From positions 1 through 5,430 of IMG/VR virus record IMGVR_UViG_2778261420_000005: DNA of 5,430 nt. One strand, written 5' to 3'. A program made the translations under genes and the position numbers. The notes under the pieces are model-generated. The model saw nothing but the letters and a program-made list of their open reading frames with translations. It was not told the DNA's origin and did no database searches. The stretch comes from a virus (taxonomy: Duplodnaviria; Heunggongvirae; Uroviricota; Caudoviricetes). Shown piece by piece: positions 129 to 5,388 of the stretch. The number at the start of each line of letters is the position of its first letter. Positions within the stretch are counted from its first letter, which is position 1.

Positions 129-1226
129 TTAAGCAGCAGATAAAACCGCAAACTGCAGTACTGCCCGATCTACTGTCAGTGGCTCATTGGTTTGATATGC
201 TGGTACAAAGAAGGCTCTGTTAACTGCTACCGGCTCGCTCATCAGGAGTCCGGTTTGTAATTGCATGGTGTTAATGGTTATCGGTTCATGGGTGTTGCGC
301 CCTGACTGAACAAATTTTCTGTTAATTGTTAAAGGCCCCCTTGTCTGTTCCCCGGACTGAAGCAGCACTCTGTTGATTTGCAGAGCGGGCTTTGGCGTTT
401 CTGACGGAATTTCTGGTGGAATGACGGGCGCACCCTGAGAAGCCAGAGCCTCCGCGATTAACGCGCGTACAAATGCAGCATTGGCTATCTCATTACCGGA
501 TGCATCCGGTGGAGGTACTGGAGACATCGGGGTTCCCGTAAATTCAGGGCTGTCCAGCGATGCTTTTTTCTGCGTTTCATCCATCACTAACTTTACCGCC
601 TTCGAGGTCGCTGCAAGCGTTTCTGACTCACTGTCCGTGGCGCTGCTCAGCCGCACAATCCCGTTGTGTTCCGTACTCGCATCCTCTGCAGTATATTTCC
701 TGTCAGCGAGATCATATGCTGCTTTTACCGCCTTCGGGGTCGCTGCAAAATCTTCACTGCCGCTGTCCGTATCGCTGCTCAACTGCACCAACCCCTTTTG
801 GGTTGTGGTGGCATCCATTGTTCTTATGCTGTCGAAAATCTTCTTTACACTTTCTGCATATTCGGCTGCCGCTTCCGCATTCGCCCTGGCGTGAGACACC
901 AGTTCCTCAAGGTGGATTATCACTTCAGGCCTGGCATTCTGCTCAGTGAATTTCAGTAAAAAATCATTCAGCGCCCCAGGCTGAGAATCTTCGTAAACGG
1001 TGATGTCCCCTATATTCGATGGTGGATAACCATCAACCAACAGGGTGACGCTGTACTGTCCATACTCAACGTCCATACTGTAACGCCCGGTTTCATCCGA
1101 TCTGACTGAAGCTACAGTACTTGCCAGCACCGTGGTGCTGTGACGCCTTGCCGTCAGCTGAATGATGCCATTCTGTATTGGTTTACCTGCACCGTCTTTC
1201 AGCACACCTGAAATCTTTACTGCCAT
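129..1226 (-). CDS. Side tail fibre-like protein (prophage tail-fibre N-terminal domain, two phage tail-fibre repeats, P2 gpH/Stf-like conserved motif), 365 aa counted from the ATG
   Basis: ORF track gives 129..1232 with a GTG start (MNMAVK...), but that GTG overlaps the only good Shine-Dalgarno (GGGGAG, plus 1232..1237). I call the ATG at 1224..1226 (MAVKISGVLKDGAGKPIQNG...), 5 nt downstream of the SD. The N-terminus resembles the MAVKISGVLKDG... start of StfR-type prophage tail-fibre proteins. Two copies of a G(I/L)VxLSSxTDSxSE..AATxKAVK repeat lie at residues ~147-170 and ~191-214. The motif SPEFTGTPMSPVPPPDASGNEIANAAFVRALIA resembles the conserved SPxLTGTPTAP...QIATTAFV block of P2 gpH / lambda Stf-type fibres. 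Stop TAA = plus 'tta' at 129..131. Confidence 0.8.
   Translation of the reverse strand: MAVKISGVLKDGAGKPIQNGIIQLTARRHSTTVLASTVASVRSDETGRYSMDVEYGQYSVTLLVDGYPPSNIGDITVYEDSQPGALNDFLLKFTEQNARPEVIIHLEELVSHARANAEAAAEYAESVKKIFDSIRTMDATTTQKGLVQLSSDTDSGSEDFAATPKAVKAAYDLADRKYTAEDASTEHNGIVRLSSATDSESETLAATSKAVKLVMDETQKKASLDSPEFTGTPMSPVPPPDASGNEIANAAFVRALIAEALASQGAPVIPPEIPSETPKPALQINRVLLQSGEQTRGPLTINRKFVQSGRNTHEPITINTMQLQTGLLMSEPVAVNRAFFVPAYQTNEPLTVDRAVLQFAVLSAA
132..386 (-). repeat. Five degenerate tandem 51-bp (17-codon) in-frame repeats forming the C-terminal 85 residues of the tail-fibre protein
   Basis: Seen in the translation: ALQINRVLLQSGEQTRG / PLTINRKFVQSGRNTHE / PITINTMQLQTGLLMSE / PVAVNRAFFVPAYQTNE / PLTVDRAVLQFAVLSAA, consensus P-x-x-(I/V)-N-R-x-x-x-Q-x-G-x-x-x-x-E. 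At DNA level the plus strand shows a recurring 'ctgttaa(c/t)tg' / 'gtgttaatgg' motif every ~51 bp. The protein ends directly after the fifth unit. Confidence 0.5.
564..806 (-). repeat. Two tandem copies of a phage tail-fibre repeat inside the tail-fibre CDS (period 132 bp / 44 aa), visible at DNA level
   Basis: Seen in sequence: plus ~591..660 (ctttaccgccttcgaggtcgctgcaagcgtttctgactcactgtccgtggcgctgctcag...) and plus ~723..792 (ttttaccgccttcggggtcgctgcaaaatcttcactgccgctgtccgtatcgctgctcaa...) align at roughly three-quarters identity by eye. They encode ...LSSDTDSGSEDFAATPKAVKAAYD... and ...LSSATDSESETLAATSKAVKLVMD... Confidence 0.6.
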
Positions 1227-1241
1227 ATTCACTCCCCAAAC

Positions 1242-1265
1242 AAAAAAGGCACCATTTCTGGTGCC
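1242..1265 (-). terminator. Candidate rho-independent terminator (minus strand) 20 nt downstream of the J stop: GC-rich 6-bp stem, 6-nt loop, then T6
   Basis: Seen in sequence: plus 'ggcacc' (1248..1253), loop 'atttct', 'ggtgcc' (1260..1265), preceded on plus by 'aaaaaa' (1242..1247). Minus-strand RNA: GGCACC-AGAAAU-GGUGCC-UUUUUU, immediately followed by the GGGGAG Shine-Dalgarno and start of the next gene. The stem is short, so efficiency is uncertain. Confidence 0.5.
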
Positions 1266-1284
1266 CTTATCCAGGTTATAAAAT

Positions 1285-4200
1285 TCAACTGATACTGATA
1301 CCTGCTGTTGATTTCTTCATCACCACAACCAGTAAATCGCTGATACTTGCTGTGGGATACCAGCCATTTACCAGCCATGCTGACACAGAAAATTCCAGCG
1401 TCATGTGACCGTGACCGGCAGGCATATCAATAACGCCACTGTAAATCAGCGTATTATCCAGCGCAGTACGGTTATAAATTTCAGCACCGTTTTTCCGCAC
1501 TATCAGACGGCATGAGGAGTAAATATCAGTATGATTTCGCTCATGCTTAGCGCCGCTGAATGCCACCGCCGGAATAACAATCTGTCGGTCAAACGGCTGA
1601 TCGTCATAAATCCTGACGGTAATGGTCCCTGATGGCCACCGTTCCGGTGCACGGGAGTCCCGGGGGAAAGCTTTACCCACTGTTTTAACGAGATCGCCTT
1701 CAATCTGGTTCGCGGACAGTTTTCCCAGAACCCGGCAGTTCTTGTTAATCGTGACGTTGTTGAGCGTCCCGGCGTTCGCATTCACGTTACCGCTGATATC
1801 CGCATTTCTCGCCGTCAGTCGCCCGTCCGGTGTCAGGGAAAATGCCGGAGGATTGCCACCACTGGTAATGGTGGGGGCCGTCAGGCGTTTCAGGAACACG
1901 TCATTCATGAATATCTGATCACCCTGCGCCACAAACATCGGCGTTTCATTTCCGTTTGCCGGGTCAATAAACGCGATACGGTTAGCGGCAACCAGGAACT
2001 GGCTCAGTTTACCTTCCTCCGTGTCCTCCATGCTGAGGCCAATACCCGCGACATAATGTTTGCCGTCTTTGGTCTGCTCAATTTTGACGCCCCACATGGC
2101 ATTCCATTTATCGTTGGCATCTTTCCACTCTTTCGAAAACGCCTCCAGTTTGCTGGCGTTATCCTCCGTCAACTCGACTTTTTCCAGCAGCTCTTTACCG
2201 AGATGGGATTCGGTTATCTGGCCTTTGAAAAAATCCAGGTAACCTTCGGCATCATCGCTCGCCCGACCGACAGCCTCCACAAATGCCGATTTGCCAACGG
2301 TGTTCACACTGCGGATGTAAAAATAATAATCATGGCCCGGTTTGATATTGATACTGGCAGCTATCCAGTACAGCGCCGTGCCAAGATAGCGGGCTGTAGT
2401 TTCAACCTGCCTGATATCCGCAATCCGCTTTTCCGAGAACCAGAACTCAAACTGTACCGTCGGATCATAAACGGCAAGATGGGGCGTGGCGGTTATCTGA
2501 AAATAGCCCGGCGTCAGCTCAATCCGCGACGGCGCTGCCGGTGCGGCAATCCGGAACGATACCGATGCAGGATCGCCCTGCTGCCCCCAGGCATTTGCCG
2601 CCCGGACTGTCAGCCTGTAGCTTCCCAGCGCCAGCTGCCTGAAGCGGTATGTGGTTTCCGTCGTCCGGGCCGTGCTGACCAGCCGCTCACTGCCGTCATC
2701 CGCTGCCACGGTCAGGCGAAGCATAAAGCTCACACCCTTCACCACCTTCGGCGTATCCCAGCGCGCCAGCACCTGATATTCCCCGCTGTCTGCGGTGACT
2801 TCTGCGGTCAGGTGCTGCACCGCTGGCGGCGTGACACCATTCACCGTGCCACTCTGTTCGCCGTCAAAGTGCGCCCCGTTATCCACGATGGCCTCTTTTT
2901 CCGGCACATGCTGCACGGCGGTGATGGCATACGTGCCGTCGTCGTTCTCACGGATACTCACGCAGCGGAACAGTCGCTGGCGCAGCGTCGGCAGCTTCAG
3001 CCCCCATACGCTGTATTCAGCAACACCGTCAGGAACACGGCTCACTTTTACCTTCACGCCGTCGGTGACGGACTGAACCTCCACGCTGACCGGATTGCCA
3101 CTTCCGTCAACCAGGCTTATCAGCGTGGTACCGGAGGATGGCAGCGTGATTTCACGGTCGAGCGTCAGCGTCCGGGTCTGGCTGTTCACCGCCAGCACAC
3201 GACCACCGGTGCTGATACCGGCATAGTCATCATCACAGATTTCAATAACATCGCCCGGTACATGGCGAAGCCCTTCTGCGCCGACGCTGAAATCCACGGT
3301 CTGCGTTTCCAGCAGTTCTGTTTTAATCAGCCACAGCCCGGCGCGGTGTGCCTGCCCCCGACTGGTACAGCCAAAGGCATCCATCTTCGTGACGTTACGA
3401 CCGTAACGGGCAATGGCCTGCGTGTCCTCCACAAGCTCTGTCGCCGTCTCCCAGCCGTTATCCGGGTCAATCCAGTTCACCTCAACGGCATTATGGCGAT
3501 CCTTCAGGGCGCTGAAACTGTAGCGGAACGGCGCGCCATCATCCGGCATCACCACATTACTGCGGTTATAGGTCCATACCTTATCCGATGGCCGGTCCTG
3601 CACGAACGTCAGCGTCTGCCCGTTCCATACCGGCATACAGCGCATCGCCGAACAGAAATCGCTGAGCACATCCCACGCCTTGCGCTGTGTGGTCAGCCAG
3701 GCATTACAGGTGATGCGCGGCTCCGTGCTGCCAAAGCCGTCCGGCACCGACTGGTCGCAGTAGTGGCCGATAACATACAGCGCCCATTTATCCACATCTG
3801 CCGCACCAAGACGTTTCCCCATGCCGTAGCGCGGGTGGGTCAGCATATCCCACAGACACCAGGCCATGTTGTTGCTGTATGCCGGTTTAAACGTTCCGTC
3901 CCAGATACCGCTGTATTGCCGCGTCTGCGGGTTATAATTCGACGGCACCTGCAGAATACGCCCGCGCAGATGATAATTACGGCTCACCTGCTGGCTGCCG
4001 AACTGCTCCGAATCCACCTGTACGCCGACCAGTGCCGTGTTCGGGTAGCACTGTTTCACATCGATGATTTCGGTGTATGACGACCAGAGCGTTTTGTTCT
4101 GCAGCTGGTCTGTGGTGCTGTCCGGCGTCATCCTGCGCATCCGGATATTGAACGGGCGCGGAGGCAGGTTATCCACCACCACCGAGGCCAGATACTGCGA

Positions 4201-4680
4201 GGTGGTTTTGCCCTTAATGGTGATGTCTTTTTCCGTCACCCAGCCACCGTTACGCTGTATCTGAACCAGCAGGCGAACTTCCGACGGATTCCTGTCTCCC
4301 TTTGAGGTGGTTTCCACCAGTGCCTGTACACCGAAGGTAAAGCGCAGACGGTCGATGTTTGCCGACGTGATGGTGCGGGTGATCGGCGTGTCATATTTCA
4401 CTTCCGTACCCAGCACCGTCTCGGAGCCGGAGGATTCAAACCCCTCCGGCGGAGTCTGCTCCTGCTCACCTGCCCGGAACACCACCGTGACACCGGAGAT
4501 GTTGGTATTCCCCTCACTGTCCAGCACCGGCGTACTGTTCAGCAGCACGCTTTTTAAGCCATCCACCGGACCTTCAATCGGCCCTTCGCTGATGGCATCA
4601 ATCACACTCAGCAACTGCGTGGACTTCAGGTTGTCCTTCGCTTCGCGCGGGGTATGCCCCTTACTGCTGCCTTTACCCAT
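1285..4680 (-). CDS. J: Host specificity protein J / tip attachment protein (central tail fibre), lambda gpJ family, 1131 aa
   Basis: ORF track 1285..4680 (-). Start ATG (reverse complement of 'cat' at 4678..4680) preceded by GGAG/GAGGA. N-terminus [38 protein letters not shown]... and most of the length match my recollection of lambda gpJ (1132 aa) nearly residue for residue. The last ~155 residues are homologous but clearly divergent. Stop is TGA (plus 'tca' 1285..1287). Confidence 0.95.
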
Positions 4681-4740: not shown

Positions 4741-5388
4741 TCAGCGACCAATCACCACAACCTGACCACCGTCCCCTTCGTCTGCCGTGCTGATCTCCTG
4801 AGAAACCACCCGCGACCCCACACGCATTTCACCGTACAGAACAGGCAAAACATTGCCCTGAGCAACCATGTTATCCAGTGAGGAGAAATAGGTGTTCTGT
4901 TTGCCGTTATCTGTACTGGCTGCCGTGGGCGTCCTGGCTTTCGGTGCCAGCATCTGCGCCACACCGCCCAGGATCATACTGGCCCCTGCCGCATACATGC
5001 CCGATACAGCCGCGGCACCCAGCCAGCCCACAGGGTTCCACCATGCCACCGCAATCAGCGCCGCCCCCAGCACCACCTGAAATACACCGCCACTTTTAGC
5101 TCCCGCCAGACGCGGCACGATATGGATCACGGCACCATTTGCCAGCGGCTCATTAAGACGGGCAGATAATTCGGTTTCACCTGCATCACGCCCGGCAATG
5201 CGCACCTGATACCAGCCGTCATTCAGCTTCTGACGAAACGCCGGGAGCTGTGTGGCCAGCGCCCGGATGGCTTCGGCCCCCGTTTTCACACGAAGGTCGA
5301 TGCGGCGGCCAAATCGTTGCAAATCCCCGTAAAGGCAGATGCGTGCCATGCCCGGTGACGCCAGAGGGAGTGTGTGCGTCGCTGCCAT
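4741..5388 (-). CDS. I: Tail tip assembly protein I (lambda gpI family), 215 aa
   Basis: ORF track 4741..5388 (-), ATG = reverse complement of 'cat' at 5386..5388. Protein (MAATHTLPLASPGMARICLYGDLQRFGRRIDLRVKTGAEAIRALATQLPAFRQKL...YFSSLDNMVAQGNVLPVLYGEMRVGSRVVSQEISTADEGDGGQVVVIGR) matches my recollection of lambda gpI (about 223 aa), including a central Gly/Ala-rich hydrophobic segment. Synteny K-I-J supports it. Confidence 0.88.
   Translation of the reverse strand: MAATHTLPLASPGMARICLYGDLQRFGRRIDLRVKTGAEAIRALATQLPAFRQKLNDGWYQVRIAGRDAGETELSARLNEPLANGAVIHIVPRLAGAKSGGVFQVVLGAALIAVAWWNPVGWLGAAAVSGMYAAGASMILGGVAQMLAPKARTPTAASTDNGKQNTYFSSLDNMVAQGNVLPVLYGEMRVGSRVVSQEISTADEGDGGQVVVIGR

Follow-up and report, generated by a model that had tools for sequence, protein, structure and literature searches.

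Gene J in the window, the 5,430-nucleotide stretch of E. coli prophage DNA analysed here, is a mosaic of a lambda-type trunk and a 1A2/Sakai-type tip that most likely docks on OmpC (Table 1). The mosaic comprises the trunk at aa 1-941 and a VT1-Sakai-type cassette at aa ~946-1131, joined by homologous recombination within a universally conserved 18-residue stretch. The 3' edge of the cassette is formed by a conserved 19-residue C-terminal end and a terminator hairpin. The cassette is predicted to fold into three beta-prism layers and an Ig-like domain, with distal loops contacting a trimeric porin. The trimeric tip would dock on OmpC rather than LamB, and OmpC binding would then open the tail by way of the lambda-type trunk, in the manner reported for lambda and LamB.

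Table 1. Features of gene J and its surroundings, in window positions.
Feature	Residues	Position	Strand	Basis or remark
Gene J (tail tip / central tail fibre protein)	1131 aa + stop	1285..4680	minus	ORF list, Pfam, RefSeq gpJ annotation
Lambda-type trunk of J: hub domains, FNIII domains, helical shaft, most of central straight fibre	1-941	1858..4680	minus	97.4% aa and 96% nt identity to lambda J
Recombination joint zone, 12-residue stretch conserved in all J types	942-953	1822..1857	minus	Informative sites
Exchanged C-terminal module: lowest beta-prism fibre layers and receptor-binding domain	~946-1131	1288..1845	minus	nt identity, VT1-Sakai versus lambda
Predicted Ig-like receptor-binding domain proper	1001-1131	1288..1680	minus	Pfam PF12421, fold match
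Subfamily-specific segment (10 residues)	1008-1017	1630..1659	minus	A8/phi330/phage 21 subfamily 4 residues shorter here
Hypervariable beta-hairpin (12 residues), predicted receptor-contact loop	1044-1055	1516..1551	minus	Sequence entropy and model
Variable loop PAGHGHM	1087-1093	1402..1422	minus	1090 (H/R/S/Y) and 1092 (D/G/H/V) hypervariable in subfamily
Variable loop (10 residues), predicted receptor-contact loop	1102-1111	1348..1377	minus	Variable at 1102-1106
Terminator-like hairpin just past J stop, 3' edge of exchanged module		1245..1268	minus	Terminator scan: 10-pair stem, then T run
Tail assembly protein I gene		4741..5388	minus	Pfam Lambda_tail_I; context for J
Side-tail-fibre N-terminal gene (stf-like)	365 aa	129..1226	minus	Pfam phage_tail_N and Phage_fiber_2; context

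The J protein belongs to the lambda-type tail tip proteins (gpJ/TipJ), and its homology, domain series and cluster position all fit. Six gpJ-specific Pfam domains follow one another in order, each scoring above its cut-off (FNIII-A_GpJ, Phage-tail_3, Ig_J, Ig_J_second, Phage_Tail_Tip and Ig_GpJ_C), and the global alignment of the protein with lambda J (J02459) is colinear, with a single gap in 1132 columns that lies near the end. RefSeq genomes with an annotated gpJ match the window at 99.9-100% identity, and near-identical genomes carry the complete cluster V-G-T-H-M-L-K-I-J-stf-tfa. In the window itself, the I gene is upstream of J and the stf-like gene lies directly after J, with no lom gene between the two, and the J-stf junctions of phage 21 and the window align nearly base for base. 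The terminator hairpin at the J end is also found after J in phage 21 and VT1-Sakai, but lambda does not have that form. An Rfam scan of the whole window gave no match, a tandem-repeat scan of 1-1300 found none, and no promoter-like sites were seen within 1100-1900. The overlapping ORFs at 1622-1918 (plus), 1503-1781 (minus, in another frame) and 1178-1408 (plus) were taken as chance ORFs inside the conserved coding frame.

The divergence of the J C terminus from lambda is real and far beyond chance. In the protein alignment, 929 of 954 residues (97.4%) are identical over aa 1-954, compared to 73 of 146 (50%) over aa 955-1100 and 56 of 125 (44.8%) over aa 976-1100. A maximum chi-square change-point test against lambda J puts the protein break at aa 978 (chi2 384), a value that none of 1000 permutations reached, the largest permuted value being 17. 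The DNA of J nt 1-2826 matches lambda J at 96.0% and that of nt 2827-3300 at 58.9%, and the blastn alignment ends at J aa ~978 with no DNA alignment beyond. On the identity over aa 976-1100 and the loss of the blastn match, the tip falls outside the LamB-binding lambda type. The first-pass annotation had called residues 1 to ~975 almost identical to lambda gpJ and the last ~155 divergent, and the pairwise alignment with lambda J bears out both statements. The translation of window 1285-1755 (ending in TAGISIS and the stop) is the same as the C-terminal sequence quoted there, minus its first N.

In a three-way comparison of lambda, VT1-Sakai and the window, the sharp switch in similarity is identified as a recombination joint. 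Informative sites are lambda-like up to J nt 2826 (aa 942) and VT1-Sakai-like from nt 2838-2859 (aa 946-953) on, with isolated lambda-matching exceptions at nt 2880 and nt 2962. The exchanged module has 89-98% nt identity to VT1-Sakai J versus 49-56% to lambda. Over the trunk, by contrast, VT1-Sakai J matches at only 29-85% of nt, an island at aa 720-800 excepted. A recombination breakpoint had been suggested from the similarity drop, and the comparison agrees, with a change of parentage at aa 942-953. The divergence placed from 1755 onward is also genuine, but that position is not the switch, which lies ~25-35 codons upstream at window 1822-1857; the interval 1288-1755 corresponds to the 3' five-sixths of the exchanged module. 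The first ~30 residues of the exchanged segment look lambda-like at the protein level because they are conserved in all J types.

The C-terminal segment is, judging from its sequence profile and modelled fold, the receptor-binding part of J with a gpJ-tip fold, as had been proposed earlier from the likeness to lambda. Pfam PF12421 (Ig_GpJ_C) matches aa 1001-1131 with 129.8 bits against a gathering cut-off of 26.2 (E 9.5e-38, profile positions 1-135 of 135). The AlphaFold2 model, a monomer with low confidence for the prism part, has block-mean pLDDT of 70-96 over most of the domain and ~51 at the C-terminal end. Its top PDB fold matches are the tips of A8 gpJ (9wca/9wcb, with OmpC) and lambda gpJ (8xck/8xcj, with LamB), with E values of 2e-19 to 5e-17 and TM ~0.65, and the next matches after these four have E > 4e-5. 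Sequence matches in the PDB are 'A8 gpJ 713' (9wca, E 4.6e-83) and lambda gpJ (8xcj, 8iyk).

Variation within the tip subfamily is concentrated in predicted loops. Sequence entropy is highest at positions 1047-1053, within the hairpin aa 1044-1055, whose tip lies between model strands 103-107 and 110-122. This hairpin is 5 aa shorter than its counterpart in the A8/phi330/phage 21 subfamily, and the equivalent hairpin of phi330 (E953-S962) has been modelled pointing into the OmpC barrel (PMC12502783). The loop aa 1102-1111 lies between model strands 151-162 and 175-181, and the PAGHGHM loop between strands 136-145 and 151-162. Two substitutions in the hairpin, K1048R and E1049N, and one in the loop aa 1102-1111, N1106G, set the window apart from Sakai/1A2.

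Amino acid identity of the tip is 95% with Sakai, 70-72% with phi330 and phage 21, 52% with 434 and 49% with lambda. Compared with the VT1-Sakai type, which 1A2 matches, 9 of 190 positions differ, and 3 of these are in predicted contact loops. The gpJ-1A2 C-terminus (PMC11338833 supplement) is identical to the window at 166 of 180 unambiguous positions (~92%) and to VT1-Sakai at 175 of 180, as read by a frameshift-tolerant protein-to-DNA alignment from a machine-read PDF that has frameshift errors and ~10 unreadable positions. The window tip groups with the 1A2/VT1-Sakai subfamily, having no indels and all three signatures: the 11-residue segment, the short KHE..HTDIYSS hairpin and the SAWLVN.WYP loop.

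The receptor of the window tip is most likely OmpC, not LamB, because the tip is nearly identical to that of gpJ-1A2. gpJ-1A2 is a lambda J(1-964)::prophage-tip chimera with which DNA is delivered via OmpC in lamB-deleted cells (Brodel et al., Nature 2024, PMC11338833). With this chimera, delivery exceeds 90% in lamB/ompC-deleted MG1655 carrying the EDL933 OmpC (variant G17), and at the top MOI it reaches at least 76% for 20 of the 23 natural OmpC variants. It is ~2% with K-12 OmpC and 5% on LamB-bearing wild-type MG1655 (PMC11338833). These figures come from Extended Data Fig. 1 of that paper, with G17 taken as the EDL933 OmpC per the 9wcb title; G1 shows values identical to those of the MG1655 panel. 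Panel C of Extended Data Fig. 2 was left out, because its source data for 1A2 and A8 duplicate those of panel B. A8 gpJ is bound to OmpC according to the title of 9wcb, and the lambda gpJ trimer with LamB binds the trimeric porin and tail opening is triggered (PMC11101478). Sequence similarity is an imperfect receptor guide in the gpJ tip family, because the tips of phi330 (OmpC) and phage 21 (LamB) are 83% identical and one substitution permits the phage 21 tip, a LamB user, to use OmpC (PMC11336670). For the window allele, we infer both the use of OmpC and the range of OmpC alleles. The earlier suggestion had been either a different outer-membrane receptor or a different LamB allele. The former is the better option, given that the ~92% identical 1A2 tip is a LamB-independent OmpC user, and nothing supports the latter. 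A search of the literature found no receptor data for the phages PhiR47_1, PhiR55_1 and 2G7b; PMC13190303, the sole paper in which PhiR phages are named, deals with a defence system. Nor did it find a paper on PDB 9wca/9wcb from which contact residues could be taken.

That the C terminus of a lambda-like ancestor diverged in situ, through fast point mutation under diversifying selection and without recombination, has next to no chance of being correct, and the three-way comparison effectively refutes it. Positive selection is known to act on receptor-binding loops, and the variation here is loop-centred, but DNA identity to lambda falls abruptly from 96% to 59% with the conserved core strands included, identity to VT1-Sakai climbs to 89-98% over exactly the same segment, and nearly identical cassettes occur on unrelated J trunks. 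It is also very improbable that J is a relic in a defective prophage with a tip that is no longer functional. Strain TD225-C4 (99.9% identical) does have truncated tape-measure and gpM genes in the same prophage; however, J itself is an intact 1131-aa ORF with all domains, and strain E200086 has the same tail region with intact tape-measure and M genes, and its tail gene set looks complete. Moreover, isolates obtained on E. coli C and ECOR13 include phages with the same trunk and tip.

The tip could still bind LamB, either generally or as an allele other than that of K-12, since lambda (49% tip identity) and phage 21 (72%) natively use LamB and one or few substitutions can change receptor choice in this family. 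This is improbable, as 1A2, the closest tested tip (~92-95% identical), works in lamB-deleted cells given a suitable OmpC and reaches only 5% delivery on LamB-bearing wild-type MG1655, and the window lacks the long NFNSNNQQSYW hairpin common to phage 21 and its relatives. An unlikely alternative, though one with several observations in its favour, is that the tip binds another outer-membrane protein (such as OmpF or another porin), or that it uses OmpC but, through K1048R, E1049N and N1106G, a different range of alleles from 1A2. These three changes fall where the loops vary most, A8 and 1A2 are already distinct in the OmpC alleles they accept, and the OmpC of one lysogen, E200086, is neither K-12-type nor EDL933-type, being closest to PDB 2xe1, then to EDL933 and then to K-12. 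Against this, the remaining domain, most loop residues included, is identical to the Sakai/1A2 type, and no subfamily relative is known with a receptor other than OmpC. Docking of a 1A2/Sakai-type tip on OmpC is the preferred reading, and within it the nine differences from Sakai, including the three in predicted contact loops, may change the set of OmpC alleles that the tip accepts. The allele with R1048, N1049 and G1106 might, as a speculation with some chance of being right, recognise other OmpC alleles than 1A2 does, such as the O6-type allele of its own lysogen, or K-12 OmpC, which 1A2 cannot use. If so, the window tip would represent a natural fine-tuning of specificity that could serve to redirect lambda-based delivery particles.

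Tips of the window type are the commonest J tips among natural E. coli prophages, and the lambda tip is a rarity. Of 5426 complete E. coli genomes, 3380 carry the tip domain family and 98 carry lambda's own tip; the tips of these 98 are all at least 99% identical, and the five records listed among them are laboratory K-12, B and DE3 strains. These counts call for a correction of the first-pass framing, a divergent tip on an otherwise lambda-like backbone, because such a tip is not unusual; it is lambda's LamB-binding tip that is the exception among E. coli prophages. The combination of trunk and tip is itself already known, from RefSeq genomes, from a published engineered chimera and from sequenced phages, since PhiR47_1, PhiR55_1 and 2G7b, all isolated, have the same lambda-type trunk with this tip.

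The window J is a clean natural example of lambdoid host-range change, in which a ~190-codon receptor-binding cassette with conserved sequence on both sides is swapped between otherwise unrelated J genes. The natural joint is within 10-20 codons of the one that engineers chose to retarget lambda particles to OmpC for gut delivery. Its practical value is modest, as it adds one more natural allele, with three loop substitutions, of an already exploited tip.

The window J is in effect a natural version of the gpJ-1A2 construct. Both have a lambda-type trunk and a tip of the same subfamily, joined in the same conserved stretch, and the swapped segments align with no indels. The engineered joint is at lambda aa 964, whereas the natural joint at aa 942-953 is ~10-20 codons upstream, and the trunk is 100% lambda in the construct and 97% in the window. 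The tips differ by S970A, E980K, V1024I, K1048R, E1049N, N1106G, A1124S and T1129S. The functional measurements are those of 1A2.

VT1-Sakai (Sp15, Stx1 prophage), Stx2a_WGPS2, JLK-2012, PPompW and P-EibA have J C-terminal modules that are 95-97% identical to that of the window and are followed by the same terminator, but their J trunks have only 29-85% nt identity to the window trunk. The J gene of VT1-Sakai itself is split by mutation and followed by lom. gpJ-A8 and phi330 J (OmpC; 9wca, 9wcb) and phage 21 J (LamB) share the fold, the conserved flanks and a 20-residue C-terminal end with the window at 64-72% identity. They form a sister subfamily, in which the segment before the first domain strand is 4 aa shorter, the central hairpin (NFNSNNQQSYW) is 5 aa longer and the last loop is different. 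gpJ-A8 also uses K-12 OmpC, but 1A2 does not.

Phage 434 J is another lambda-type trunk with a non-lambda tip and is an OmpC user; its tip, however, is 52% identical, has other loop lengths and belongs to a separate tip lineage. The lambda J tip (LamB; 8xcj, 8xck) has the same Pfam family, the same Ig-like fold and the same place at the fibre end, but it is only 45-50% identical, all four of its distal loops are different and its receptor is LamB. Because the two tips occupy the same site on this fibre, the signal through the trunk is presumably triggered in the window J as it is in lambda.

The window carries a tail-tip gene, J, whose product joins a lambda-type trunk (aa 1-941) to an exchanged C-terminal tip. 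All genes of the window are on the minus strand, and the complete series of lambda gpJ domains is present in J (Pfam). Aligned to lambda J from J02459, the window J has 97.4% protein identity over aa 1-954, 50% over aa 955-1100 and 44.8% over aa 976-1100, with a single gap close to the end. In the maximum chi-square change-point test, the strongest break along the protein falls at aa 978 (chi2 384), and none of 1000 permutations came near this value, the highest being 17. DNA identity drops at J nt 2826 from 96.0% to 58.9%, and blastn did not extend the lambda alignment beyond J aa ~978. The first-pass annotation had described window 1288-1755 as a divergent region on a lambda-like backbone; this interval is J aa 976-1131, the protein sequence quoted for it matches its translation, and the alignment and change point bear out the divergence.

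Features of the window and of the J protein
Feature	Window position	J residues (aa)	Strand	Basis
Tail assembly protein I gene	4741-5388		minus	ORF list and Pfam
Gene J, 1131 aa	1285-4680		minus	ORF list and Pfam
Side-tail-fibre N-terminal gene (stf-like, 365 aa)	129-1226		minus	ORF list and Pfam
Ig_GpJ_C, "C-terminal receptor binding domain"		1001-1131	minus	Pfam, 129.8 bits against a cut-off of 26.2
Recombination joint, conserved 12-residue stretch	1822-1857		minus	Lambda-to-Sakai switch of informative sites
Terminator hairpin	1245-1268		minus	Terminator scan; common to phage 21 and VT1-Sakai
Entropy peak, tip of beta-hairpin in model		1047-1053
Entropy peak, loop in model		1090-1092
Entropy peak, loop in model		1102-1106

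The joint was mapped in a three-way DNA alignment of J from the window, lambda and VT1-Sakai (the Stx1 prophage Sp15). Up to aa ~930 the window shares 88-100% identity with lambda and 29-85% with Sakai, except for an island at aa 720-800, whereas from aa ~972 the values are 49-56% for lambda and 89-98% for Sakai. Sites that split lambda from Sakai mostly match lambda up to nt 2826 (aa 942) and, with isolated exceptions, match Sakai from nt 2838-2859 (aa 946-953), which places the joint in a 12-residue stretch kept in every J type examined. Divergence of the tip in place does not account for an abrupt fall in identity to lambda that coincides with a rise to another J, and the sharp change read earlier as a likely recombination breakpoint is indeed one. 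The joint lies ~25-35 codons upstream of the start proposed at first, because the protein sequence of the exchanged segment is conserved in its initial part. Conserved sequence also forms the 3' edge, namely the 19-residue protein end, the stop codon and the terminator hairpin; the exchanged unit is therefore a cassette of ~190 codons bounded by conserved sequence. In the island (window ~2280-2520), the J genes of the window, lambda and VT1-Sakai are all 90-98% identical in DNA and the Sakai flanks 29-80%; it either marks a second joint of the mosaic or is a part of J that is strongly conserved.

The "divergent" tip is the norm and lambda the outlier, as judged from complete E. coli genomes (n=5426), protein clusters and sequenced phages. 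The 471-nt tip segment of the window has matches in 3380 genomes, at 7375 places, and the phi330/A8 type in 2936. Lambda's own tip matches only 98, each with at least 99% identity; among these, the five listed records come from K-12, B and DE3 laboratory strains. One 90%-identity protein cluster, 99% identical to the window tip, has 4135 member sequences, and the phages PhiR47_1, PhiR55_1 and 2G7b already combine a lambda-type trunk with a window-type tip. Prophage regions of two human E. coli isolates are 99.9% identical to the whole window, with J annotated as "phage attachment tail tip protein J". The 99.9%-identical tail region occupies different chromosomal sites, adjoining tRNA-Ser and hyaA in TD225-C4 (L002 16768-18689), with truncated tape-measure and gpM genes, and yecD and aspS in E200086 (L006 4295-7689), where both genes are intact.

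The cassette is a receptor-binding segment, as first proposed, based on the Ig_GpJ_C match and the modelled fold. Its PDB sequence matches are "A8 gpJ 713" (9wca/9wcb, E 4.6e-83) and lambda gpJ (8xcj/8xck, 8iyk, E ~1e-61). In an AlphaFold2 model of aa 942-1131, most of the Ig-like domain reaches block-mean pLDDT of 70-96, and the N-terminal prism strands, for which the trimer is required, have low confidence. The top four Foldseek matches (E 2e-19 to 5e-17, TM ~0.65) are A8 gpJ closed (9wca) and open with OmpC G17 of E. coli EDL933 (9wcb), and lambda gpJ closed and LamB-bound (8xck and 8xcj); no other Foldseek entry was better than 4e-5. The lambda domain inserts four distal loops into LamB, and the binding signal travels up the fibre and opens the tail (PMC11101478).

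Over the 190-aa module, the window tip is 49% identical to that of lambda (receptor LamB), 52% to 434 (OmpC), 70% to phi330 (OmpC; PMC12502783), 72% to phage 21 (LamB natively, with OmpC added by one J substitution; PMC11336670) and 95% to VT1-Sakai. VT1-Sakai J (L005:1550-5022), the closest named relative of the window tip, is probably not functional, since its annotation gives two overlapping ORFs "truncated by a mutation". The receptor assignment turns on the tip of gpJ-1A2, an engineered lambda J(1-964)::prophage-tip chimera (Brodel et al., PMC11338833), which was aligned by a frameshift-tolerant protein-to-DNA method because its machine-read text carries frameshift errors. Of its 180 readable positions, 175 agree with VT1-Sakai, all five mismatches being at visibly garbled spots, and 166 agree with the window, without indels; the gpJ-A8 tip, of phi330 type, is 64% identical to the window.

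The 1A2 chimera gave 98% delivery into MG1655 lacking lamB and ompC and carrying OmpC variant G17 (the EDL933 allele, per the 9wcb title). With 20 of 23 natural OmpC variants, its delivery at top MOI was at least 76%; it was ~2% with variant G1, for which the values are the same as in the MG1655-OmpC panel, and 5% on wild-type MG1655, where LamB is present (PMC11338833). OmpC is thus the receptor of the 1A2-type tip, which distinguishes between OmpC alleles and makes no use of K-12 LamB. Of the two earlier proposals, that of a receptor other than LamB is probably right, OmpC being likely, and we infer the same three properties for the window allele. This is not certain, because the receptors of the phi330 and phage 21 tips differ despite 83% identity, and because nine positions differ between the window and Sakai/1A2 (K958R, S970A, E980K, V1024I, K1048R, E1049N, N1106G, A1124S and T1129S). 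In the source data for Extended Data Fig. 2 of PMC11338833, the panel C (OmpC-EDL933) values for 1A2 and A8 equal those of panel B (OmpC-MG1655), in conflict with the text and with Extended Data Fig. 1, so the deposited table probably contains a copy error.

In an alignment of 20 database relatives, entropy within the window's subfamily peaks at three places, all in loops of the AlphaFold2 model. Two of these, aa 1047-1053 and 1102-1106, are counterparts of the phi330 hairpins placed in the OmpC barrel and on its rim in an AlphaFold3 model (PMC12502783). Three of the nine window-Sakai differences (1048, 1049 and 1106) are inside these predicted contact loops and may alter which OmpC alleles are recognised. 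OmpC of the E200086 lysogen (L008:27432-28559, 375-aa precursor) scores higher against PDB 2xe1 (780 bits) than against EDL933 OmpC (9wcb, 721) or K-12 OmpC (2j1n, 698), and is a third allele class, which is compatible with OmpC-allele tuning of the tip and not decisive. The domain family, the modular exchange at the joint, the subfamily receptor and even the exact sequence are already in the literature and databases, and none is new.

In the stf-like protein, Pfam matches are confined to the N-terminal and Phage_fiber_2 parts. Its final ~85 residues (window 129-390, minus strand) resemble five ~17-aa repeats, such as LTINRKFVQSGRNTHEP and ITINTMQLQTGLLMSEP. In near-identical genomes the gene is followed by ORFs encoding a hypothetical protein of 349 aa, a phage tail protein of 369 aa and a tail fibre assembly protein, and because of these three further ORFs the side fibre may be split or multi-part. 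Upstream of it, the J stop, terminator hairpin and stf start all fall inside 58 nt (window 1227-1284), with no lom gene. Lambda, 434, VT1-Sakai and phi330 differ in having lom between J and the side-fibre gene, whereas the J-stf junction of phage 21 is nearly base-for-base the same as that of the window.
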